Below, piece after piece: positions 1,368 through 12,330 of a DNA stretch of 64,000 nt. The DNA is from Thermoplasmatota archaeon (GTDB taxonomy: Archaea; Thermoplasmatota; Penumbrarchaeia; Penumbrarchaeales; Penumbrarchaeaceae), in NCBI GenBank assembly GCA_016928095.1, contig JAFGLL010000051.1, positions 11,779 to 75,778 of the forward strand. Reading direction: 5' to 3'. Both the position numbers and the translations under genes were made by a program. How positions within the stretch are numbered: position 1 is the stretch's first letter; the number at the start of each line of letters is the position of its first letter. Under the pieces are notes generated by a model. That model was not told where the DNA came from, did not search any database, and was given only the letters and a program-made list of their open reading frames with translations.

Positions 1368-3350
1368 ATGTTGTATTCCGACCTTTGCTCGTTCTATGGA
1401 AGGATAGAGGAACTCAGCGGAAGGTTGGAAATGACCGACCAGCTCGTTGAACTCTACCGTATAACCCCTCTTGAACTGATAGAGACCGTCGTACGGCTTA
1501 CCAAGGGAGAGATACGACCGGGATATGAGGGTCTGGAGATGGGGGTCGCCGAGAAGCTGGTGCTCAAGGCCTTGTATATGGTGACGATGCTTCCGGTGGA
1601 GGAGATCGAGGAGGAACGGGTCAGAAAAGGTGATATTGGAAGTGCAGCGGAGATATTGGTCGGCAAGAAGAGACAGACATCGCTGTTCCATGAACCTCTC
1701 ACGGTCACAAGGGTGTTCACCAGTCTGACAAGGATAGCCTCCGTAGAGGGGCGCTCCTCCCAGGACCTTAAATTGAAGTTGATCGCAGAGCTGCTCCACG
1801 ATTCGACCCCAATGGAAGCCAAATACCTGACAAGGACCGTATGTCAGAAGATGAGGTTAGGCATCGCCGACATGACCCAGATAGATGCACTCTCATATCA
1901 TAACACCCCGGGGATCGACGAACTCGGCGATTTTTTGGTCCATAACGGTCTTCCCCTCGACGATGGACTCGTTCAAGCTGTAAGAAAGCATCTGGCGACC
2001 GCAATGAGCACACTTGCAGAAACCAGGACCCTTATAAAGGAAAAAGGTATGGAAAAGGATGTTGTACGATCAATGACCGAAAGGGTCCAGAAGATCAGGT
2101 CGGTCGTTCAGGAGAACCGTGAGACCATCGTTAGAGCATACAACATCCATCCGGACCTGGGTTACATAGCATCGCTCCTGGCGAGTGGTGGGATAGGTAA
2201 TATGGGACATATCAATGTGACCCCGGGGATCCCTCTGAGAGCAATGCTCGGGGAGAGGTTACCATCCATCTCAGGGATCATGGAAAAGATGGGGGGCAAG
2301 GTAGCGTTGGAATACAAGTACGACGGTCTGAGGGTGCAGGCCCATATCACAGATATGGGGAAGAACGTTATACTCTTCTCGAGGCAGCTTGAGAACATCA
2401 CGGACCAGTTCCCGGATGTTGCCGGATACCTGGGATCGATGTTCAAAGGGCAGGACTGTATCCTTGAGGGTGAATGTGTTCCGGTGGAATCTGGAACCGG
2501 GAGAATGCTTCCATTCCAGGTCATCTCACAGAGGAGAGGCCGAAAATATGATCTTGAGGACAAGATCGAGGAGGTCCCGGTGATACTGGTCCTTTTTGAC
2601 TGTCTCTATCTGAACGGGAGCGAATACATAGGGAAACCATATCTGGAAAGAAGGGATGCGATCCGTCAAGCGATACCGGACCTTTCCGAGAGAATGGACA
2701 CAGGATCTGGTCTGGCCCTTTCGAGAATGGAAATAATGACAGATGCGGATGAGGGGGAGAATTTCTTCTTGGTGGCTCTTGATGATGGGTGTGAGGGAGT
2801 TATGGCCAAATCTGTAGGGGAGGGTTCGATATATCAGGCGGGGAACAGGGGATGGTTATGGATAAAATACAAAAAGGACTATCATTCAGAACTGATGGAC
2901 ACGATGGACCTTGTGATCATCGGAGCGTATCACGGAAGCGGAAGAAGAGGGGGTACCTTCGGTGCATTCCTGATGGCAGCATATGATAGTGATGATGACG
3001 TATTCAGGACGATCTGCAAACTGGGAAGCGGTTTCAACGATCGGCATCTTGAGGAACTGCCAGCTCTTCTCACGGAGCTTCAGGTCCCGGGGGGCCAAAA
3101 TCCCAAGGTGGATACCAGAATGGAGCCGGATGTATACATAATACCATCCATTGTCCTGGAGGTGAAAGCGGCCGAGATCACTTTCTCCCCGGTCCATACA
3201 TGTGCCTGGGGATATTTGAAGGACAATGCGGGACTTGCTCTCAGGTTCCCGAGGTTCACAGGGAGGATCAGGGATGACAAGGGCCCATATGACGCGACAA
3301 CCGTTCGTGAGGTAATAGGACTTTACGGGCAGCAGATCAAGTCATTATGA
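1368..3350 (+). CDS. lig: ATP-dependent DNA ligase (archaeal LigI type)
   Basis: Adenylation motif EYKYDG; ILEGE, EGVMAK, WIKYKKDY, DLVIIGA and LRFPRF motifs; N-terminal DNA-binding domain. Confidence 0.97.
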   Translation: MLYSDLCSFYGRIEELSGRLEMTDQLVELYRITPLELIETVVRLTKGEIRPGYEGLEMGVAEKLVLKALYMVTMLPVEEIEEERVRKGDIGSAAEILVGKKRQTSLFHEPLTVTRVFTSLTRIASVEGRSSQDLKLKLIAELLHDSTPMEAKYLTRTVCQKMRLGIADMTQIDALSYHNTPGIDELGDFLVHNGLPLDDGLVQAVRKHLATAMSTLAETRTLIKEKGMEKDVVRSMTERVQKIRSVVQENRETIVRAYNIHPDLGYIASLLASGGIGNMGHINVTPGIPLRAMLGERLPSISGIMEKMGGKVALEYKYDGLRVQAHITDMGKNVILFSRQLENITDQFPDVAGYLGSMFKGQDCILEGECVPVESGTGRMLPFQVISQRRGRKYDLEDKIEEVPVILVLFDCLYLNGSEYIGKPYLERRDAIRQAIPDLSERMDTGSGLALSRMEIMTDADEGENFFLVALDDGCEGVMAKSVGEGSIYQAGNRGWLWIKYKKDYHSELMDTMDLVIIGAYHGSGRRGGTFGAFLMAAYDSDDDVFRTICKLGSGFNDRHLEELPALLTELQVPGGQNPKVDTRMEPDVYIIPSIVLEVKAAEITFSPVHTCAWGYLKDNAGLALRFPRFTGRIRDDKGPYDATTVREVIGLYGQQIKSL

Positions 3351-3357
3351 ACCTGCC

Positions 3358-4596
3358 TTACACTATGTTCCTCATCATGGGTAAGAACCTTGGTATCAGC
3401 TTCAGGAGCGAAGGCTCTTTCCTTATTAGAAGCAGAGCGAGCCTCAACGGGTGATCTATATCACCTTCCCTGTTGATGATCTCCATCAGTTCAGGGTCCG
3501 AAAGTCTTTTAACCACCTCCTCAACCTCTTCGTCCTTGACCTGACTGATCAATTTCCTGAAGAAACGAGACCTTGACAGTTCCTTACCGTAACCGGACAA
3601 CCATGAGGACCGGAACAACTCGAGGGCATCTGGAGAGATGTCACAGGCCTTGTCCACGGAACGAACAAGGTCGTTCACCGCAAGCAATCCTGGATATATG
3701 CCTCCCCCGGATGTGGGTTTTGCCATTCCAGCTGAATCACCGAGAATGAGAGCATTACCGGAGATTATCGTTCGGGGGGAACCCATGGGAACGATACCAA
3801 TGTTGAAGGATATCTCACTTGTATGAGCGGTTCTATCACCATCGAGCCCCAACCATTCCGCAAGTCTAGCATCGTGGGGGAGGTTGGTCCAGCCTTTTCT
3901 CAGTGAATTTCCGTCCTCTGCTGCAAGACCGATCCTCATGGATGTTCTTGTCCCGGCCGGAACAGCCCATGCGAAGAAGCCTTTCGCAGTCTCTTCCCCT
4001 GTGAAGACAGCAACAATGTCATCCGGAACGGACCCTTCATCTATCTCGACCTGAAATGCAGCTCCTGGTATGATGCTGAAAGGTTTCTCGAGACCCAGGT
4101 ATCTTCTAATGGAAGAAGAAGCTCCGTCACAACCTATGAGAATCCTGGTCTTGATAATGCCCTCCCCTGAAAGGCCCCTAAAATTGACATCGAATCCTCC
4201 ATCGTTCCTCCTATCTATGCCAATGGCCTTGACGGATAGGAGTGTTTCGGTCCCTGCATCGGCGGCATTCTTCAGAAGGACCTTGTCGAACCTTGCCCGG
4301 TCCATGGATATGGCCTTTACCTTATTTGCCCTCAGGTTCAGGTATTTTCCTCCAGGTGAGTAGATGTCCGCTCCCGTGATATCGTTAAGTCTAACCCTAT
4401 CGATCACTTTATCCAGCTCAGGAAGGTCGAACATTGACCGGTTGACCAAACCGGCGCATTGTTCGGGTCGGCCAACTTCGGGATGCTCCTCGAGAAGCCC
4501 GACGGAGAAACCCTTTTTCGACAGCATCCATGCGGTATAACAACCAATAGGACCTGCACCTATGATGGTTATATCCGTCCTTTCAGGTACTCTCAA
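3358..4596 (-). CDS. Geranylgeranyl reductase family FAD-dependent oxidoreductase (probable digeranylgeranylglycerophospholipid reductase)
   Basis: GAGPIG Rossmann motif; EEHPEVGRPEQCAG; DRARFDKVL; IGCDGASS; GFFAWAVP; GDSAGMAKPTSGGGI. Confidence 0.88.
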   Translation of the reverse strand: MRVPERTDITIIGAGPIGCYTAWMLSKKGFSVGLLEEHPEVGRPEQCAGLVNRSMFDLPELDKVIDRVRLNDITGADIYSPGGKYLNLRANKVKAISMDRARFDKVLLKNAADAGTETLLSVKAIGIDRRNDGGFDVNFRGLSGEGIIKTRILIGCDGASSSIRRYLGLEKPFSIIPGAAFQVEIDEGSVPDDIVAVFTGEETAKGFFAWAVPAGTRTSMRIGLAAEDGNSLRKGWTNLPHDARLAEWLGLDGDRTAHTSEISFNIGIVPMGSPRTIISGNALILGDSAGMAKPTSGGGIYPGLLAVNDLVRSVDKACDISPDALELFRSSWLSGYGKELSRSRFFRKLISQVKDEEVEEVVKRLSDPELMEIINREGDIDHPLRLALLLIRKEPSLLKLIPRFLPMMRNIV

Positions 4597-4684: not shown

Positions 4685-6226
4685 ATGTATCCCGTGGATG
4701 GTATGATCCCTGATGATGATGGGTTGTTGTTCGTTAACGGATCGGTATGGGATAGCAGTGAGTTGCGGTTCAGAAAGGGTGAGCTCCTCCTTAGGGGTGG
4801 AATGATAGAGAACCTGTCCTTCGCCGGGAGCATACCATCCTTCGAAAGGTCACGAGCGAAGATGTTCGACCTTGAGGGTGGTTTCCTCTGTCCGGCCTTC
4901 ATTGACGCGCACATGCATCTTCTCCAATGGTCCATTACCCGATCCGGTGTTGACCTATCCATGTGTAATTCGGTCGATGACGTATCGGGTAAGATATCGA
5001 ACGTTGTCGAAGGAAGAGAAAAGAACTTTCTTTACGACAGGACCGGTATCGTTTTCGGAACCGGCTATGATGATTCCCGGTTCCAGGAGGGTAGGCTCGA
5101 TAACGGGTATTTTCTTGAAAAAGAGTTTGGCTGGGTCCCCACGATCATAAGAAGGGTGTGCGGCCATATAGCACTGGCAAATTCAGAGGGAATAGGGAGG
5201 CTCGGTCTGGAACAAGGAGATATGGGCCATTCCCCTATCATGGAAGATATTGCCATGAACCTGCCATGGAGACTGCCGATAGATCTCCCAACGCTTTCGG
5301 ACCTTTTAAGAAACGCCATTGATGCGTCCTATTCTGTAGGGGTCATTGGAGGTGTGGACATCGTTCCATTGTCCCATTTTGAAAGGATGATAGAGGCAAT
5401 CTCACGCACAAGTCGGACACTGGTCATGACATATGCAATGATAAGGGATGATGACAGAGACCTTGAAGGGGTGGTCCCGTTGTCATCCCGGAACGGAGTG
5501 CTTTCATCGGAAGTGAATGATGATAAGATGGTTCCCTTCGCCTTCGAAAAGTTCTTCTTGGACGGTTCAATAGGAGCAAGGACGGCAAGCTTTTCCGTGG
5601 ATTATACTGACTCACCCTCCTTCCCTCTTGTCCATGAGGATAATGAACTCAAAAAAAGGGTAACCTTAAGTTACGATCAGGGCATGGTCCCGATGGTTCA
5701 CTGCATAGGTGACAGGGCGATCTCGCAAGGTGTGGGCATCCTACGATCGTTCGGATCACCATACAGGTTGGAGCATGCCGAATCCATCGAAATTTCACAT
5801 CTCGCATCGATGAGTAAAGGAAAAGGGGCCTTATGCCTGCAACCGAACTTTCAATTTCTATGGGGTGGAAATGACGGCCTTTACGAGAGAGCACTCGGAC
5901 ATCATGCAAAATGCCTGAATCCTTTCAGATCGGTAGTAGATTCTAAAGTACAATGGTGTTTCGGTACCGATATGATGCCTCCCGGACCTTTGTTCGCGAT
6001 GAAGGGAGGTCTTGAACATCGGGACCCAAGGCAGAGGTTGAGCTTGAATGAAATGATAAAGGGATTCACCATCAATTCTGCTAGGATATCCCTGCAAGAC
6101 GATCATTACTGTCCAGAACTTATTGTGGGTTCCTCACCGGATATGATAGTGATCGACCGGGAGATGATGAGGGTAAATGCAACCATGGTCAAAGGTCAGA
6201 TCGTCCATGTGATAACCCAGACATGA
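4685..6226 (+). CDS. Metal-dependent amidohydrolase (YtcJ / amidohydro_3-like)
   Basis: PAFIDAHMH; RVCGH; KFFLDGSIGARTA; HCIGDRA; RLEHAE; FGTD. Confidence 0.9.
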   Translation: MYPVDGMIPDDDGLLFVNGSVWDSSELRFRKGELLLRGGMIENLSFAGSIPSFERSRAKMFDLEGGFLCPAFIDAHMHLLQWSITRSGVDLSMCNSVDDVSGKISNVVEGREKNFLYDRTGIVFGTGYDDSRFQEGRLDNGYFLEKEFGWVPTIIRRVCGHIALANSEGIGRLGLEQGDMGHSPIMEDIAMNLPWRLPIDLPTLSDLLRNAIDASYSVGVIGGVDIVPLSHFERMIEAISRTSRTLVMTYAMIRDDDRDLEGVVPLSSRNGVLSSEVNDDKMVPFAFEKFFLDGSIGARTASFSVDYTDSPSFPLVHEDNELKKRVTLSYDQGMVPMVHCIGDRAISQGVGILRSFGSPYRLEHAESIEISHLASMSKGKGALCLQPNFQFLWGGNDGLYERALGHHAKCLNPFRSVVDSKVQWCFGTDMMPPGPLFAMKGGLEHRDPRQRLSLNEMIKGFTINSARISLQDDHYCPELIVGSSPDMIVIDREMMRVNATMVKGQIVHVITQT

Positions 6227-6288
6227 TTACCGGCTCCAGTTTCATTACTAAGTAAGCTTTAAATAATAGTTCAATTATTTTTCAAATC

Positions 6289-6300
6289 TTTATATATATA
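6289..6300 (+). promoter_or_regulatory. Archaeal TATA-box-like element (TTTATATATATA) in an AT-rich patch upstream of the structured intergenic region
   Basis: AT-rich run 6241-6302 ending in TTTATATATATA; no plausible CDS follows for ~600 nt. Confidence 0.55.
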
Positions 6301-6319
6301 TTTCTCGGGGTCTTCGTGG

Positions 6320-6800
6320 TAGTGATAGAACTGAATTACGACGAACGAGCTAGGACCGGGGAAAACCCCTTGAAACGATCATCCATTACACACCTTGAAC
6401 CCCAAAACAACCCCAATTCCGGAGCTCATGGAAGTGATGCCCGTGCTTTCGTGCGCGATATAGTTGCTTCCACTCATTTCCTTAAGACCGGAAATGAACT
6501 GGGCTCCGGAACCCCTCTCGATATAAGGAGTTTCTCGGACCAGAAGGCGCAGGCTGTCAGAATAAGCGACTACAGCTTTCCAACCTTCGTGATACGGAAA
6601 CCAAGGCAACGTAGTTCGTATAGCGAAAAAGGAGAGGGGGGGATGAGCTCCCCCTCTCCAGGCGATCATGCTCATATATAAAACCTCTATTAGGAATCTG
6701 AAACCCCGGTTGTGCCGTCGAATTTTCCCCGTGGCACAACCACTCTTCCTTTCACTCGAGATGGGAGTCCCGGACCTCACCTCTTGCATGAGGTCCGATC
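6320..6800. ncRNA. Candidate structured non-coding RNA (unassigned family)
   Basis: 12-bp helix 6417-6428/6500-6511 encloses two hairpins (6429-6472, 6474-6497); further stems at 6631-6642/6648-6659, 6708-6716/6733-6741 and 6771-6779/6789-6797; only non-protein-like ORFs overlap. Confidence 0.5.
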
Positions 6801-6900
6801 AGTCAAGGCTGGGCGGAAAAAATGCTTATGAAAGGGAAATCATTATTAACTAAAGATCGCATCGAACATATGTACATTAAGGTATAGTAGGAGACCAAAA

Positions 6901-9591
6901 ATGCGACCATCCACGATAAGGACATTTGCGATCGTCATGGTCATAATGACAGCTGCACTTTTCGTACTGAACTTGGATGCTTCCGCTAAGTATACCCAGA
7001 TGGTCTCTTTCAGGGAAACCGAACAGGTTGCCAACCAAGATATCGATGGCCCTATTCCGGTGAACGGTGGTATCGATGGGTCCTCCGAAGACCCAAAGCA
7101 CATCTCTCTGTCGATCGAGAACATCCAGATATCGTCAATGGTGAACAAGAAGATCTTTCCGAACACACCAGTTGATTTCATCATTGATACAAAAGGCCCT
7201 TCACCCGAAGTGGTCACATTGTTCCTGGACAATAACCACCCTTCCATGAACATTACATACGATCTTGGTCGAAATACTGTATTGGTCTCCGAGAGCCTTT
7301 ACGATCTGATCAGGGTGGACATGGAAAGGACATCAGCAAAGTTCAATGCAACAAGTAGACACTGGGAGATACTCTTCGCCCTATCGTTCGATTGGACCTT
7401 CCCCAAGGACTTCACAAAGGACATAGAGGTCACCGTTGTCGATACCTATGGTAATCTTGATAATGAGATCCTCGAGGAAGCCTATACTTTTGAACCTGAT
7501 ATCGAGATCAGCGGAGAACCGATCATCATTGTGGATGACCCAAACATCCTGACCGATGACCTTTTCATTAAAGGGGGGGAGAATATACTCCTGAAGCAGA
7601 TCAGCATTCATTTCGAGGGAGTTCCGGAGGTATCACCTGACCCGGGTGATGTCACTATAGGTGTGGAGGATTCCTTTGGCAGGTTCTGGGAATATTCTCC
7701 CAGCTTGAGAGAACAGCTTGGAGCAGTCTCCTTCTCGTTACCTGTACCAAAAATAGATGGGCCCGACACTTTCGAGTTCGTGGTTATGGAGCACCCTTCC
7801 GGGTCTGTTGTCCATGGCGGGGCAAGGTTCGATCTTAAAATAGATTCAACACCACCTTCAATGGGAGATTTCAGATACAATTCCGTCGACGGGAACCTCT
7901 TCATGAGTTGGGCATTGAACGAGGAAGGTTCCGGATTGAGGACGCAGTCGATGAAGTATTCGATCCTCGATGGAGATGAGATGATAATACCTTGGACAGA
8001 TATTCCTTCCTCGGCATTGATCGATGATAGATTGAAGCTCGAGATCGATAATGTTGAAGGTGACGACCTGCAAGTAAGACTGAGCATGGCCGACAGGGTT
8101 GGCAATGATATCCCCCAGGACCAGATCTATTATGTAACAACGGACCCAGTCGTAGCCCATGACATATCCATCGATGGGCTGAGGTATTCTCCGAACACGA
8201 TAGTGATCAATCAGGTCATTACATTCTTTGCATCCGTCCACAATCATGGGACAGAGGATGAGGGCCAAATTCAGGTTGATGTCATGGAAGACGGGAATAT
8301 CCTGACCTATATGGAGCTGGACCTTCCTGCAGGTTCGACAAGAGAGATCAGATGGACCTGGAGAGCGACAGAGGGAACCTCATATTTCGAAGTATCACTG
8401 GATCCTCAGGGCAGGGTCCCGGACGAATACATGTCCGATAATATACTTCACTTCATTGTGGAACCGGACTATCTGGATGTAACAGCAAGGGAAGATTACA
8501 TGTTGCTTTCCGATTCAAATGCCCAAGACATGGATATAATTTCCATAACGTTCTCCATCAGGTCCATAGGCGGCATCGAAAGCGGACCGATCAAGGTCAT
8601 TTTCATGGAAGAAGACAAGTTTATGGGCATGTATCAGGTCCCTTCGATCTACAAGGAGGAGGCAAGAGAACTTGTAGTCTATTGGAAGGTCGATATTTCC
8701 GTCAGGAACCTTTCATTGATGATAGATCCCTATAATGAGATCCTTGAGTCGATCGAGGATAACAACCTGTTGGTATATCAAAATCCTTTCTTCCTGTTCA
8801 TTGAACCAACACCCGATGAGAATGTCCATATCGAAGAGGATGAGTATGATACACTCGAGGAAGAAGTGATCGATGAGGCGATGAACGGAGTGACCCCCTC
8901 CGGAGGCACGACCTGGAAAGGTGAGGAGATACCTCAAAAAGAGGAGGTAACGCAAGAAGGTTCTCCATCGTTACCTGTGATCATCTCTCCAACCCCGGAG
9001 GAACCCAAGATCATACCACCTTTGATCCTTCCCACCGTTGGTTTCATACTGGGTACTGGATTGTTCAGCCTTACCATATTCGGTCTCAGAAGTGAGGTTC
9101 TCAAATTCAAGCTGCTCGGTCTTCTCATACCTCTGTATTCAAAGATCAAGAAAAGCAAGATCGAGAAGGGGACCAGACACGAGATCCTCGGTTATCTGAA
9201 GGCCAAACCTGGCGCCAATTATTCGGAGCTAAAGAGGAACCTGGACCTCAACGACGGCTCTCTGGTACATCATCTTCGTGTACTGGAACGTGAGGATATG
9301 GTATATTCCAAGAAGATGGGGAAATACAAGCTCTTCTATGTGAGCAGTTATCGTAGACAGGCAACCATCAGGGATTATATATCACCGTTCCAGCTTAGGA
9401 TAATGGAGATAATACTGCAGAATCCCGGGATCGTCCCAAATAAACTTTCCAAGATCCTGGACCGAACCCAGACCGATATGTCCTACCATCTTGGTGAGCT
9501 CTCGAGGAATGGACTTCTTGAAAAAAGGAAGAAGGGGCGGAACATACATTATTTCATATCCGAAGAATATTCGGATATTCTCACGGTCTGA
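6901..9591 (+). CDS. Membrane-anchored protein: signal peptide, Ig-like/CARDB domains, TM helix, C-terminal tandem winged-helix DNA-binding domains
   Basis: Hydrophobic N-terminus; two CARDB-like repeats (VHNHGTEDE..LDPQGRVPDEYMSDN; IRSIGGIES..IDPYNEILESIEDNN); TM ~aa 706-731; RHEILGYLKAKPGANYSELKRNLDLNDGSLVHHLRVLE and FQLRIMEIILQNPG..MSYHLGELSRNGLL wHTHs. Confidence 0.8.
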   Translation: MRPSTIRTFAIVMVIMTAALFVLNLDASAKYTQMVSFRETEQVANQDIDGPIPVNGGIDGSSEDPKHISLSIENIQISSMVNKKIFPNTPVDFIIDTKGPSPEVVTLFLDNNHPSMNITYDLGRNTVLVSESLYDLIRVDMERTSAKFNATSRHWEILFALSFDWTFPKDFTKDIEVTVVDTYGNLDNEILEEAYTFEPDIEISGEPIIIVDDPNILTDDLFIKGGENILLKQISIHFEGVPEVSPDPGDVTIGVEDSFGRFWEYSPSLREQLGAVSFSLPVPKIDGPDTFEFVVMEHPSGSVVHGGARFDLKIDSTPPSMGDFRYNSVDGNLFMSWALNEEGSGLRTQSMKYSILDGDEMIIPWTDIPSSALIDDRLKLEIDNVEGDDLQVRLSMADRVGNDIPQDQIYYVTTDPVVAHDISIDGLRYSPNTIVINQVITFFASVHNHGTEDEGQIQVDVMEDGNILTYMELDLPAGSTREIRWTWRATEGTSYFEVSLDPQGRVPDEYMSDNILHFIVEPDYLDVTAREDYMLLSDSNAQDMDIISITFSIRSIGGIESGPIKVIFMEEDKFMGMYQVPSIYKEEARELVVYWKVDISVRNLSLMIDPYNEILESIEDNNLLVYQNPFFLFIEPTPDENVHIEEDEYDTLEEEVIDEAMNGVTPSGGTTWKGEEIPQKEEVTQEGSPSLPVIISPTPEEPKIIPPLILPTVGFILGTGLFSLTIFGLRSEVLKFKLLGLLIPLYSKIKKSKIEKGTRHEILGYLKAKPGANYSELKRNLDLNDGSLVHHLRVLEREDMVYSKKMGKYKLFYVSSYRRQATIRDYISPFQLRIMEIILQNPGIVPNKLSKILDRTQTDMSYHLGELSRNGLLEKRKKGRNIHYFISEEYSDILTV

Positions 9592-9596
9592 TCTTT

Positions 9597-10031
9597 TCAG
9601 CTTTTCCTGAGCATCTCGTAACTTGGATAGTGCAGAAGTCCTGCTATCAAGAGCTCCTCTATCACGTCTTCGATCAGGACCCGATCGTACCCTTCTTCGA
9701 TTAGATGGGTCAAAAGGTGTTCCCTGTCCATGTCCCTGTCCAAGACCTTCAAGATATACCTTCTCAGGCTATCTCTGCTTCTTCCCGAGGCATAATGGTC
9801 GACCGATCCCCTGTGCTCCGATATTTCTTCATGCAATATCTTATTCTCCCCACCTTCCCATTTAATGGCCTTCAGGGTAGCCTGCATCCTTTCAAGTGTA
9901 TCGAAGACACTTACGGGTGAGATCTTCATCATATCTATATGATGTGAGCATCTTAGGCATCTTGTGGTCTTCACGGGATAATGTCCACCCTGGAGGTTAC
10001 TGCAGAAAGGACACTTCACGATACAATACAT
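9597..10031 (-). CDS. Zinc-ribbon protein (DUF1922/DUF5817-like) with C-terminal helical or wHTH-like region
   Basis: CPFC..CLRC at the N-terminus; divergent from mcm. Confidence 0.6.
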   Translation of the reverse strand: MYCIVKCPFCSNLQGGHYPVKTTRCLRCSHHIDMMKISPVSVFDTLERMQATLKAIKWEGGENKILHEEISEHRGSVDHYASGRSRDSLRRYILKVLDRDMDREHLLTHLIEEGYDRVLIEDVIEELLIAGLLHYPSYEMLRKS

Positions 10032-10206: not shown

Positions 10207-12330
10207 ATGTCAAAGTATGTGGACCAGGAATATGTTTTCCAGCTCTGGCAGGAATATCTTCGATCGAGGGACCTATCCGATCAGATCCGGTACATCGCCG
10301 AATCATCACCAGAGATCAAGTCGTTGGTCCTGGAGTTCAACGATATCTTCAATGCGAGCGGCAACCTTGCAGAGATCGTTCTGGAACAGCCGGAGATGAC
10401 CCTGAAAGAGGGAGAAGTTGCCATCGCCAGTCTTCTGGACCCTGATCTGAATGTTCCAATAAACCTCAGGATAAAAGACCTTTACCGGAGCCAATGGATA
10501 AATATCAGGAAACTTCGCGCAGAAGATCTAACCCATTTCATAGCCATGGAAGGTATTGTCAGGAAGGCCACTGAAGTTCGACCGAAGTTGCTTCAGGGTG
10601 TCTTTTCATGTTCATCATGTGGCCATGAGCAGGAGATCGTACAGGAATCCTTTGTTTTCAGTGAACCGCTCGAATGCAACAAGGATGATGGAGGTTGCGG
10701 AAAGAGGACCGGGTCAACGACCTTCAAGTTCATCCCGCAGAGATCCAGGTTCATCGACTCCCAGAAGATAGAGATCCAGGAGATACCCGAGGACCTGAGA
10801 GGTGGAGACCAGCCTCAAAGGATATCCATCCTGTTAGAGGATGACACATGCGGCAAGGTTGCCCCGGGGGACAAGGTTAATTTGACGGGTATCCTGAAGG
10901 CAAAACAGAGGAAGGAAGGGCAGGTGAAGGCTACAGTGTTTGATATTTACCTTCAAGGCAACTATGTGAAGATGGACGACCAGGTATTCGACGAGATGAA
11001 CCTGTCCGAAGAGGATATCGATAGGGCGAAGATGCTGGCAAAGGACCCGGCCATCTACAAGAAGATCATCAGGTCCATAGCCCCCTCCATCTTCCGACTT
11101 GACCATATCAAGGAAGCACTCATGCTGCAACTGTTTGGAGGAGTGAACAAGGAATTCCCGGATGGTTCCAAAGGAAGAGGGGATATCCATATACTGCTCG
11201 TTGGGGACCCGGGAACTGCCAAGTCCCAACTGCTGACATATATGGCAAGGTTGGCACCGAGGGGGATATTCACATCCGGCAAGTCCGCGTCAGCGGCCGG
11301 CCTGACCGCAGCAGTGATCAAAGATGAGTTCGGTGAAGGTAGGTATACTCTCGAAGCTGGTGTCATGGTCCTGGCAGACAAGGGACTTGCATGCATAGAT
11401 GAGCTTGACAAGATGACTGATTCGGACCGTTCGGCCATGCATGAGGCCATGGAGCAGCAGACCGTTTCCATTGCCAAGGCCGGGATACAGTCGACGCTGC
11501 AGAGTCGTTGCTCCGTACTTGGGGCTGCCAATCCGAAACAGGGAAGGTTCAGAGCTGGAGAGGGAAGGCATGACCAGATAAATCTTCCTCCTCCTTTGAA
11601 ATCCAGGTTCGATCTTATTTTTACCATGACCGATGAACCCGATAACAAGAAGGACCGTGAGCTAGCCAGGTCCGTGATCAGGCATCACAGGATAGGAGAG
11701 ATCCGAAGACTATCACTCATCGGTGACAAGACATATGAGACAATGATCGATAACGAGGATCCCGAACTCAACGAGGCAATGCCCGCGATCGATCCGGAGG
11801 AGCTTCGTAAGTATGTTGCTTATTCTAAAAGGATCTGTTACCCTATTCTCACAGAGGAAGCCATGTCGGAGATCATTGATTTCTACGTATCACTCAGGGA
11901 GAGAAGTGCCGGACCAATGGGAGATTCCGGTAGGGTCGCATTGACGGCAAGGCAGCTGGAGGCTTTGATAAGAATGGCGGAGGCGTCAGCAAGGATAAGA
12001 CTCAGCAATACGGTCACGCTGGCAGATGCTAAAACATCGATAAGATTGATGGAGACCTCCCTGAAAGATGTGGCCATGACCGAATCGGGGGATTTTGACA
12101 TCGATGGAATAATGGGATCCGGTTTTAAAAGCCAGAAAGATAAGATGTACGAGATCATCAGCATCATCAGAGAATCGAAGACCAAGGAAGGCAGGATCAC
12201 CAGAAGCGACCTTGCACAAATTGCCAAGGACAGGAACATTACAGAGGCCGAACTTGATAGGTATCTGAAAAAGCTTCAGGATGAGGGTGCGATATTCGAA
12301 CCCCGATCAGGAGAGTTCAGTGTACTTTAG
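10207..12330 (+). CDS. mcm: Replicative helicase MCM (no intein)
   Basis: CSSC..C..C zinc finger; Walker A GDPGTAKSQLL; IDELDKM; LGAANP; SRFDL; TARQLEALIR; C-terminal wHTH. Confidence 0.98.
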   Translation: MSKYVDQEYVFQLWQEYLRSRDLSDQIRYIAESSPEIKSLVLEFNDIFNASGNLAEIVLEQPEMTLKEGEVAIASLLDPDLNVPINLRIKDLYRSQWINIRKLRAEDLTHFIAMEGIVRKATEVRPKLLQGVFSCSSCGHEQEIVQESFVFSEPLECNKDDGGCGKRTGSTTFKFIPQRSRFIDSQKIEIQEIPEDLRGGDQPQRISILLEDDTCGKVAPGDKVNLTGILKAKQRKEGQVKATVFDIYLQGNYVKMDDQVFDEMNLSEEDIDRAKMLAKDPAIYKKIIRSIAPSIFRLDHIKEALMLQLFGGVNKEFPDGSKGRGDIHILLVGDPGTAKSQLLTYMARLAPRGIFTSGKSASAAGLTAAVIKDEFGEGRYTLEAGVMVLADKGLACIDELDKMTDSDRSAMHEAMEQQTVSIAKAGIQSTLQSRCSVLGAANPKQGRFRAGEGRHDQINLPPPLKSRFDLIFTMTDEPDNKKDRELARSVIRHHRIGEIRRLSLIGDKTYETMIDNEDPELNEAMPAIDPEELRKYVAYSKRICYPILTEEAMSEIIDFYVSLRERSAGPMGDSGRVALTARQLEALIRMAEASARIRLSNTVTLADAKTSIRLMETSLKDVAMTESGDFDIDGIMGSGFKSQKDKMYEIISIIRESKTKEGRITRSDLAQIAKDRNITEAELDRYLKKLQDEGAIFEPRSGEFSVL

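Follow-up and report, generated by a model that had tools for sequence, protein, structure and literature searches.

A small-protein gene overlapping a conserved structured RNA in Thermoplasmatota: a probable bifunctional archaeal transcript

What is encoded in a gap of about 550 nucleotides (nt) between the genes for an Amidohydro_3 protein and a CARDB-wHTH protein in a metagenome-assembled genome (MAG) of a Thermoplasmatota archaeon? The gap lies in a stretch of 64,000 nt, which we call the window. An earlier note, made from the letters of this DNA, had seen nested helices at 6302-6850 and proposed an undescribed structured RNA or a leader for the downstream regulator. To our knowledge, very few conserved structured RNAs are known from archaea beyond rRNA, tRNA, RNase P, signal recognition particle (SRP) and guide small RNAs (sRNAs), and we know of no such RNA from uncultured sediment lineages of Thermoplasmatota. 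The gap is found here to hold a transcription unit that is probably bifunctional, being the mRNA of an unannotated small basic protein and at the same time the carrier of an overlapping new non-coding RNA (ncRNA) domain of the Thermoplasmatota, with the two coupled in the way proposed below. Its anatomy, which consists of a promoter, a leader with a Shine-Dalgarno motif, an open reading frame (ORF) that starts with TTG and contains an internal helix, and a 3' ncRNA domain, is well supported, while its mode of action is what we infer. The parts of the unit and its borders are as follows.

6258-6300, + strand: conserved archaeal promoter (82-88% identity to the related loci L002 and L004, against 61-71% in the flanking genes).
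6258-6268, + strand: upstream promoter element TTTAAATAATA, AT-rich and conserved.
6283-6300, + strand: AT-rich conserved element CAAATCTTTATATATATA, including the TATA box TTTATATA (6289-6296).
6320-6369, + strand: 5' leader of variable sequence, ending in the Shine-Dalgarno-like GGGGA 6358-6362.
6370-6681, + strand: unannotated gene for a basic protein of 103 amino acids (aa), MKRSSITHLEPQNNPNSGAHGSDARAFVRDIVASTHFLKTGNELGSGTPLDIRSFSDQKAQAVRISDYSFPTFVIRKPRQRSSYSEKGEGGMSSPSPGDHAHI, with a TTG start and the TAA stop 6679-6681.
6417-6428/6500-6511, + strand: long-range helix of 12 bp inside the coding sequence, enclosing the hairpin 6474-6481/6490-6497.
6603-6755, + strand: conserved RNA element, overlapping the end of the ORF and making up the 3' third.
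6603-6623, + strand: box GCAACGNAGUUCGUAUAGC, within the 6603-6630 part of the element (AGTTCGTATAG being 6613-6623), which can pair with 6567-6573.
6631-6659, + strand: hairpin H1, GGAGAGGGGGGG/CTCCCCCTCTCC, within the last 17 codons of the ORF.
6682-6707, + strand: near-invariant 26-nt block AACCUCUAUUAGGAAUCUGAAACCCC, beginning directly after the stop codon.
6708-6741, + strand: hairpin H2 with the 9-bp stem GGUUGUGCC/GGCACAACC, the stem invariant and the loop variable.
6742-6755, + strand: pyrimidine-rich tail ACUCUUCCUUUCAC, in which ACUYUU is conserved.
6771-6797, + strand: lineage-specific 9-bp hairpin, unalignable in relatives and outside the conserved element.
6834-6850, + strand: promoter-like motif GGGAAATCATTATTAAC, before the ATG (6901) of the CARDB-wHTH gene, marking the end of the unit.

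The stretch 6370-6681, which takes up 312 nt of what the earlier note had called an intergenic region of 550 nt, is a protein-coding gene, because its frame is conserved, its differences are biased towards third positions and synonymous changes, a Shine-Dalgarno motif and a start codon are kept, and relatives are found at the protein level. The + frame is open over 102-106 codons in 17 of 17 loci, including three further metagenomic loci; in the same loci the other five frames run for 16 to 106 codons and none is consistently open. Pairwise differences at codon positions 1, 2 and 3 number 2999, 2949 and 4537, respectively, and among the codons with a single difference 1615 are synonymous and 1408 non-synonymous (53% synonymous). 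In a four-way alignment the substitutions within 6370-6681 fall on every third base, and the arginine codon 6595-6597 is CGG, CGA, CGC and CGT in the four closest loci. The 14 complete loci comprise 101-105 codons, and at the position of window 6370 they start with TTG in 13 cases and with GTG in one (L020). All 14 carry GGGGA, GGAGA, GAGGA or GGTGA 7-9 nt upstream of this start. Across loci the stop codon lies 0-6 nt from the invariant block. One of the ORFs that overlap the helices of the earlier note is thus a conserved protein.

Other readings of the frames were tried and rejected. The minus-strand ORF of 136 aa that is called by one pipeline is not open in relatives, and neither is the ORF of 61 aa in the +1 frame (6668-6853), across which the loop of H2 differs in length by non-multiples of three. 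Readthrough of the stop codon and frameshifting were discarded on the same two grounds.

The protein has six close relatives and 19 more distant ones, counted as cluster representatives. Eighteen of the distant ones are about 70-150 aa in length and the weakest (E = 4e-4) has 250 aa. Common to them is the motif KTG...PFSxQKAKAxxLSxYSFPxFVIR. Identity to the window protein spans 26-79% in an alignment of 22 members, and the motifs persist at 27-45% identity, where the DNA is no longer alignable. The proteins are hydrophilic, with a pI of 9.6-10.4, and 12 of 14 are free of cysteine. Sequence and profile searches against Pfam, NCBIfam, PADLOC and the PDB gave no match to the family, PHROGs returned one marginal match (E = 0.006) for a single one of the 22 members, and back-translated scans of genome contigs with single proteins found nothing. 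Two AlphaFold runs ended at a mean confidence (pLDDT) of 55 and 64, with only helix 24-40 modelled confidently; such a poor model would fit a protein that folds only on nucleic acid. The TTG start is kept even in the most distant members (L030:46 and L032:2001, with 27-28% identity), and its conservation in the sequences suggests selection for weak or regulated initiation. Gene callers miss or miscall this ORF.

The gap as a whole is better conserved among relatives than the genes on either side of it. The nearest homologues of the amidohydrolase, all from Thermoplasmatota MAGs, are 48-60% identical, and their contigs agree with the window in gene order and in the presence of the large gap (713-826 nt). 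Nucleotide identity of the window to L004 and L002 is 61% and 65% in the amidohydrolase gene and 66% and 71% in the CARDB gene, and rises to 79% and 80% in 6370-6681, to 88% and 82% in the promoter region and to 85% and 89% in 6603-6750. It is to the last of these regions, the 3' third 6603-6755, that the earlier idea of an undescribed structured RNA has to be narrowed. The + strand, the covariation, the transcription in relatives and the lack of an Rfam family all speak for it; the remainder of the proposed RNA is largely taken up by the 312 nt of the ORF. The box, H1, the block and H2 are RNA conserved in its own right, because copies exist that have the promoter and lack the ORF.

The box is likely to be the 5' edge of this domain. 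In 15 loci its TCG and TAT codons are free of synonymous changes, and the ORF-less RNA L138 retains it in the form GAAGUUCGUAGAUA. In H1, 71% of the cells of the alignment are paired and eight pairs covary (support for this and all other helices was counted over 15 orthologues). Compensatory changes in H1 occur in many lineages, for example GAAGGGA/UCCCUUC, GAGGGGGCC/GGUCCCCUC and GACGGGGGUUU/AAACCCCCUC, and its loop is variable in length. The block is predicted to be mostly single-stranded except for a 3-bp CCU/AGG mini-hairpin. A 25-mer (6685-6709), made up of the last 23 nt of the block and the first two of H2, is identical in 15 species genomes, all of them Thermoplasmatota, and the core AACCUCU(AU)UAGGAAU is essentially invariant in 24 distinct sequences, the ORF-less ones included. 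H2 is paired in 100% of the cells and is invariant, so that it carries no covariation information; its stem is identical in 22 of the 24 sequences, with one G-U pair in L032 and one broken pair in L139. The loop of H2 varies from about 5 to 19 nt in steps that are not multiples of three, and a tenth pair alternates between G-C, C-G and G-U. H2 is followed in the window by ACUCUUCC, of which the tail ACUCUUCCUUUCAC is possibly the 3' end of a short-form RNA and may have a role in the formation of that end. The motif of block and H2 has a single copy in the window, and since no other copy of the region is present there it is not a repeat or mobile element. Pairing partners of the block were sought by hand in the leader, in the Shine-Dalgarno motif, in the C-rich beginning of the coding sequence and in the H2 and distal loops; the matches were of 4-7 bp only, none of them conserved.

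Read as + strand RNA, 6302-6850 has a folding energy of -191.8 kcal/mol, with z = -4.71 relative to dinucleotide shuffles, none of 100 of which is as good; the - strand reaches z = -2.47. The earlier note had favoured a + strand RNA on account of its G-U pairs, and this assignment holds, because both the G-U pairs, which fit the + sense, and the fold z-scores point to it. All 71 base pairs of the nine alignable helices are standard pairs in the window, and the tenth (6771-6797), which could not be placed on the alignment, is visible in the sequence; the helices are thus present where they had been described.

Their conservation is uneven. The long-range helix 6417-6428/6500-6511 is paired in 85.4% of cells as opposed to 76.3 +/- 1.5 in shuffles (0/500 as good), its covariation score is 0.331 as opposed to 0.190 (0/500 shuffles), and pairing drops to 17-56% when the partner strand is slid. 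Six of its pairs have changed on both sides, among A-U, G-U, G-C and U-A, and the G-U-rich version of L006 (GGGG/UUUU; CGGGGCCCGG with CCGGGUUUUGG) pairs on the + strand only. RNAalifold, run on a structure-blind codon-derived alignment, recovers two helices, 6420-6428/6500-6508 and 6631-6659. Support is moderate for the hairpin 6474-6497 (77% of cells paired), and the helix 6567-6573/6611-6618 (86% paired) is conserved in sequence with only one-sided changes to G-U. Four helices are not conserved: the arm 6429-6437/6464-6472 (36% paired), its CGTGC/GTGCG cap (55%), TTTCC/GGAAA (73%, with inner pairs broken) and GGGG/CCCC 6358-6369 (52%, no covariation). The GGGG-AAAA-CCCC hairpin is the Shine-Dalgarno motif with its spacer. 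Covariation in relatives, the outcome that had been looked for, is therefore clear for 6417-6428/6500-6511 and 6631-6659 and weaker or lacking for the three other helices that are kept. Of the three-way junction that had been drawn, which lies wholly within the coding sequence, the closing helix and one hairpin are conserved and the rest is not.

The TATA-like run 6289-6300 pointed out before is real and conserved. The promoter is kept in every locus for which upstream sequence is available, including the ORF-less loci L072, L132 and L138. The elements TTTAAATAATA and CAAATCTTTATATATATA are about 25 nt apart and both also occur in ORF-less loci. From the usual archaeal TATA spacing of about -26, transcription would start near 6320. 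The L004 version is present in 20 metatranscriptome runs from soils and sediments. Four runs contain contigs that are 100% identical to L004 and whose first base lies 34-66 nt past the TATA run, with none upstream. They continue through the ORF to the invariant block, where the assemblies split up by lineage; the L004-matching RNA contigs leave the amidohydrolase and CARDB genes uncovered. One RNA contig of a relative extends 12 nt past the stretch that can be aligned to L004, which ends a few nucleotides after H2. RNA contigs from at least four other lineages, projected on the window, cover only 6367-6747. We conclude that a single compact transcription unit with a strong promoter stretches from 6258 to about 6755.

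How far this unit extends beyond the window's lineage was followed in a collection of genomes. A degenerate pattern of block and H2 has 20 loci in 19 assemblies, all Thermoplasmatota, and a pattern of the hairpin only yields, among the matches listed, mostly inverted repeats that have arisen by chance in bacteria. L072 and L132 have the homologous promoter, a 13-bp hairpin, the block and H2, with no ORF of more than 16 codons, upstream of a distant collinear CARDB-wHTH orthologue. The adjacency of RNA and regulator is older than the presence of the small ORF in the L072 lineage, because in L072 the CARDB-wHTH orthologue adjoins an ORF-less RNA. This orthologue (L072:2015-3313), with CARDB and double wHTH domains, is about 21% identical to and collinear with window 6901-9591 and belongs to a different Thermoplasmata lineage. 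In L138 the promoter is followed by the GAAGUUCGUAGAUA box, an H1-like hairpin, the block, H2 and a full distal domain, again with no ORF, and the locus is flanked by an aminoacyl-tRNA-synthetase-like gene and a minus-strand gene. The MAG MG1_202111_bin_239 holds both this ORF-less copy and an ORF-linked one (L139). In L139, L032 and L033 the ORF and the RNA stand together in a different neighbourhood, downstream of a Cupin_2 gene. L031, with a protein 37% identical, keeps the synteny of the window, and its ORF ends at a TAG inside the block; L029 has the ORF and a short RNA.

The distal domain is a feature of most lineages, in which about 200 nt follow H2 (L004:8064-8335, L009, L017, L022, L031, L032, L138). 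It comprises a GGCC hairpin, a covarying CYCGAC hairpin and a long-range helix of AGAUGyyCGGGG with CCCCG..GACAUC, which encloses the near-invariant GACCCUUCCCAUACGGCUAUUUCCCCAC. Alignment A4 contains 11 covarying pairs, most of them in the distal helices of relatives. Transcription reaches through this domain. A contig of 919 nt and depth 139 from an L139-like lineage reaches from within the Cupin gene across the ORF and the complete RNA, and can be aligned to L139 until just past the distal closing helix. A contig of 198 nt, 97% identical to the ORF-less L138, covers the distal domain and stops exactly at ...GACAUCACCC, ahead of a U-rich run. In all, two RNA contigs can be aligned as far as ...CAUC(A/U)CAYCC, just past the distal domain. 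The window, L002, L007 and L029 do not have it, and short unrelated hairpins such as 6771-6797 stand in its place; from the sequences, the lineage of the window appears to have lost the distal domain and to carry a short form.

Several observations weigh against a bifunctional transcript. The block, including its mini-hairpin, and the stem of H2 are without covariation, so comparison leaves their structure unproven. No complement of the block is present within the 64-kb window. The metatranscriptome check that the earlier note had suggested found transcription in relatives and no RNA for the window's own lineage, the metatranscriptome of the same study (X10) having a depth of 0; the runs X7, X8, X13 and X14 seem to be DNA. 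The RNA contigs are strandless and their ends are only rough, which makes the start and end points given above approximate. The protein model is of low confidence (pLDDT 55-64). Finally, L030 (protein 27% identical) has the ORF with no adjacent RNA, and the three RNAs L072, L132 and L138 have no ORF, so that ORF and RNA, which usually travel together, are separable, and their partnership is a proposal.

Recognition or seed regions commonly take the form seen here, an invariant and probably exposed block with a hairpin on either side. We propose that H1 and H2 hold the block exposed for recognition by a conserved partner. This partner could be an RNA, bound through base pairing, or a protein, and in the latter case the basic and apparently disordered protein encoded in cis would be the obvious candidate. 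Since the last 17 codons include H1 and the stop codon borders on the block, H1 should be opened and the block hidden by a ribosome that terminates here. Translation would be coupled to RNA function in this way, the translating or terminating ribosome melting H1 and covering the block, and the weak TTG start together with the helix in the coding sequence may set how often this happens.

A related reading, which we hold only tentatively, sees in the RNA a new and abundant housekeeping ribonucleoprotein of an uncultured Thermoplasmatota class. The block would be a seed for an equally invariant cellular RNA, such as rRNA or tRNA, or a site for docking on the ribosome, the small, basic and intrinsically disordered protein encoded in cis, with a TTG start that is weak on purpose, would be its dedicated partner, and termination would set the ratio of protein to free RNA. 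The window would then be a naturally minimised short form without the distal domain.

Somewhat more doubtful is an ordinary small gene, with the 3' conservation reflecting a terminator or untranslated region (UTR) and the helix in the coding sequence arising as a by-product of codon and amino-acid constraints (CCGG-type palindromes, Ser-Gly and Gly-Ser-Gly). H2 with the U/C-rich tail behind it does resemble a terminator, the helix is built around the palindromes TCCGGA and CCGG, and the block and H2 do not covary. Terminators, however, are not kept base for base across lineages whose neighbouring proteins share only 35-60% identity, as is the case for the lineages with the invariant element. 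The element also occurs with its promoter and without the ORF in L072, L132 and L138, relatives have a further transcribed and covarying domain of about 200 nt, and the helix in the coding sequence outperforms both the shuffled and the slid controls.

The unit is unlikely to be a cis-acting leader or regulatory RNA of the CARDB-wHTH regulator, as the earlier note had also considered. In most lineages the element does stand directly upstream of that gene, including the ORF-less L072 with its different upstream neighbours. Between the two, however, lies the motif 6834-6850: GGGAAA-N2-3-TTA(A/T)(T/G)AAC is conserved in most loci about 50 nt upstream of the CARDB-wHTH start codon and, judged by its sequence, GGGAAATCATTATTAAC is probably the TFB recognition element (BRE) and TATA box of this gene. 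The RNA contigs do not enter the CARDB gene and have a defined end in relatives, and in L032, L138 and L139 the module occurs with no same-strand gene following it.

That the unit is a purely non-coding RNA of about 450 nt, the ORF being an untranslated accident, is more improbable still. RNA structure is conserved inside the ORF, ORF-less versions exist, and the protein is known from its sequence alone, with a poor model. Against this stand the one frame that is open in 17 of 17 loci, the excess of third-position and synonymous differences, the conserved Shine-Dalgarno motif with its TTG or GTG start, and protein motifs that persist at 27-45% identity beyond the reach of DNA alignment.

We give hardly any credence to a DNA element (an operator or origin-recognition box), in which the inverted repeat GGTTGTGCC...GGCACAACC and the block would bind a protein: the invariant sequence without compensatory change and the nearby ligase and MCM replication genes and wHTH regulator would suit it, but the distance between the arms is not fixed (about 5 to 19 bp), the G-U pair of L032 is a mismatch in DNA, the motif is a single copy and not an array of boxes, the flanking helices covary as RNA and transcription is of high depth.

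Equally remote is strong divergence from a known, abundant family of archaeal RNAs (RNase P, SRP, or box C/D or H/ACA guide). The abundance in metatranscriptomes, as for RNase P and SRP RNAs, and the position of CUGA (6699-6702) behind the block, like that of a D box behind its guide, can be cited for it, yet no Rfam model comes below E = 0.27 in the window or in short and long relatives, the C box is not conserved, CUGA, which most sequences keep, is missing from L072 and L132, and one genome has two copies. As in archaeal box C/D sRNAs, an invariant stretch of 15-18 nt stands directly 5' of CUGA, and in many lineages UGAWG lies 20-30 nt upstream; unlike in these, the C-like motif varies (GAUCAUG in the window), C'/D' boxes are absent and neither the spacing (about 27 nt) nor the size fits, and this candidate was rejected. 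Each of the five alternatives from the ordinary small gene onwards conflicts with at least one direct observation.

The bifunctional transcript that we prefer has not been described before, neither as RNA (Rfam 15) nor as protein (Pfam, NCBIfam, PDB), and a text search of the literature returned nothing on either. At gathering level, Rfam 15 finds only three tRNAs in the window and likewise only tRNAs in 15 relatives. A permissive scan of 6150-6950 gave chance matches with E >= 2, and sensitive scans of the window, the long-form L022 and L018 and the ORF-less L138 stayed at E >= 0.27, far below gathering scores. The earlier statement that no signatures of RNase P, SRP, hammerhead or common riboswitches were recognisable agrees with these scans. 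There may be some resemblance to 16S rRNA, in its 790-loop region and at its 3' end, and a weak one to RNase P CR-I/CR-V, on none of which the present reading relies.

Among known systems, the nearest are the bacterial dual-function RNAs (SgrS/SgrT, RNAIII/delta-haemolysin, SR1/SR1P), a comparison for which the unit described here offers conservation signatures of both kinds, coding and RNA. They too combine a small protein with a structured ncRNA domain that has an exposed conserved stretch, and in relatives their coding and RNA parts are separable. The window unit differs in being archaeal, in its larger ORF (103 aa), which lies 5' of the RNA domain and overlaps it, and in an RNA domain far more conserved than any known seed. 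Like the 3'UTR-derived sRNAs (CpxQ, DapZ and SroC, and those of haloarchaea and methanogens), the RNA starts around a stop codon and shares the 3' end of an mRNA, from which it could be released by processing. Unlike these, it is elsewhere also an independent gene with its own promoter, it reaches into the coding sequence with H1 and the box, and its length in most lineages is 330-350 nt, a distal domain of several helices included.

In the omega RNA or reRNA of TnpB and IscB (IS200/IS605) a structured ncRNA likewise overlaps the 3' end of an ORF on the same strand, exceeds the protein in conservation and accompanies it when the context changes. Here, by contrast, the protein is small (103 aa) and lacks a RuvC or any other recognised domain, transposon ends are absent, one or two copies stand at stable syntenic sites and there is no hint of a guide segment. 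A module of this kind was rejected on the lack of a recognised domain and on the single window copy at a syntenic site. The orphan RNAs OLE, GOLLD, ROOL and the raiA motif share with the present RNA high conservation, covarying helices, abundance in transcriptomes and metatranscriptomes, restriction to one lineage and a function that was unknown at discovery; the present RNA differs from them in having no Rfam match, in being archaeal and smaller and in its frequent fusion to a small ORF.

The unit is set among the following genes of the window.

1368-3350: ATP-dependent DNA ligase.
3358-4596, minus strand: geranylgeranyl-reductase-like flavoprotein.
4685-6226: Amidohydro_3 protein, the upstream neighbour of the unit.
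6901-9591: membrane-anchored protein with CARDB and double wHTH domains, start codon ATG 6901, the downstream neighbour of the unit.
10207-12330: MCM.

Between the CARDB-wHTH gene and MCM there is also a minus-strand ORF (9597-10031) of 144 aa with two CxxC pairs. Its counterparts at the same site measure 144 aa in L004 and 149 aa in L005, and no Pfam match is on record. Public assemblies are prone to breaks inside the invariant block (window 6677-6720; L001, L021, L007): the Logan contigs of the source run stop at 6706/6707 and restart at 6720, and the L021 contig ends at the stop codon of the small ORF. These breaks are likely to be caused by k-mers common to co-occurring lineages.

The locus is instructive for annotation, as gene callers overlook or miscall the ORF and as metagenome assemblies break at the invariant block, where several contigs have their exact end. 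For the Thermoplasmatota, it brings to light an RNA that is more conserved than the proteins surrounding it and that has been assembled in 20 small metatranscriptomes, once at a depth of 139. This RNA exists as a free RNA gene and also in fusion with a conserved orphan small-protein gene that has a fixed non-ATG start. It would thereby make bifunctional transcripts of archaea tractable in one example, and is a candidate for a new ribonucleoprotein.

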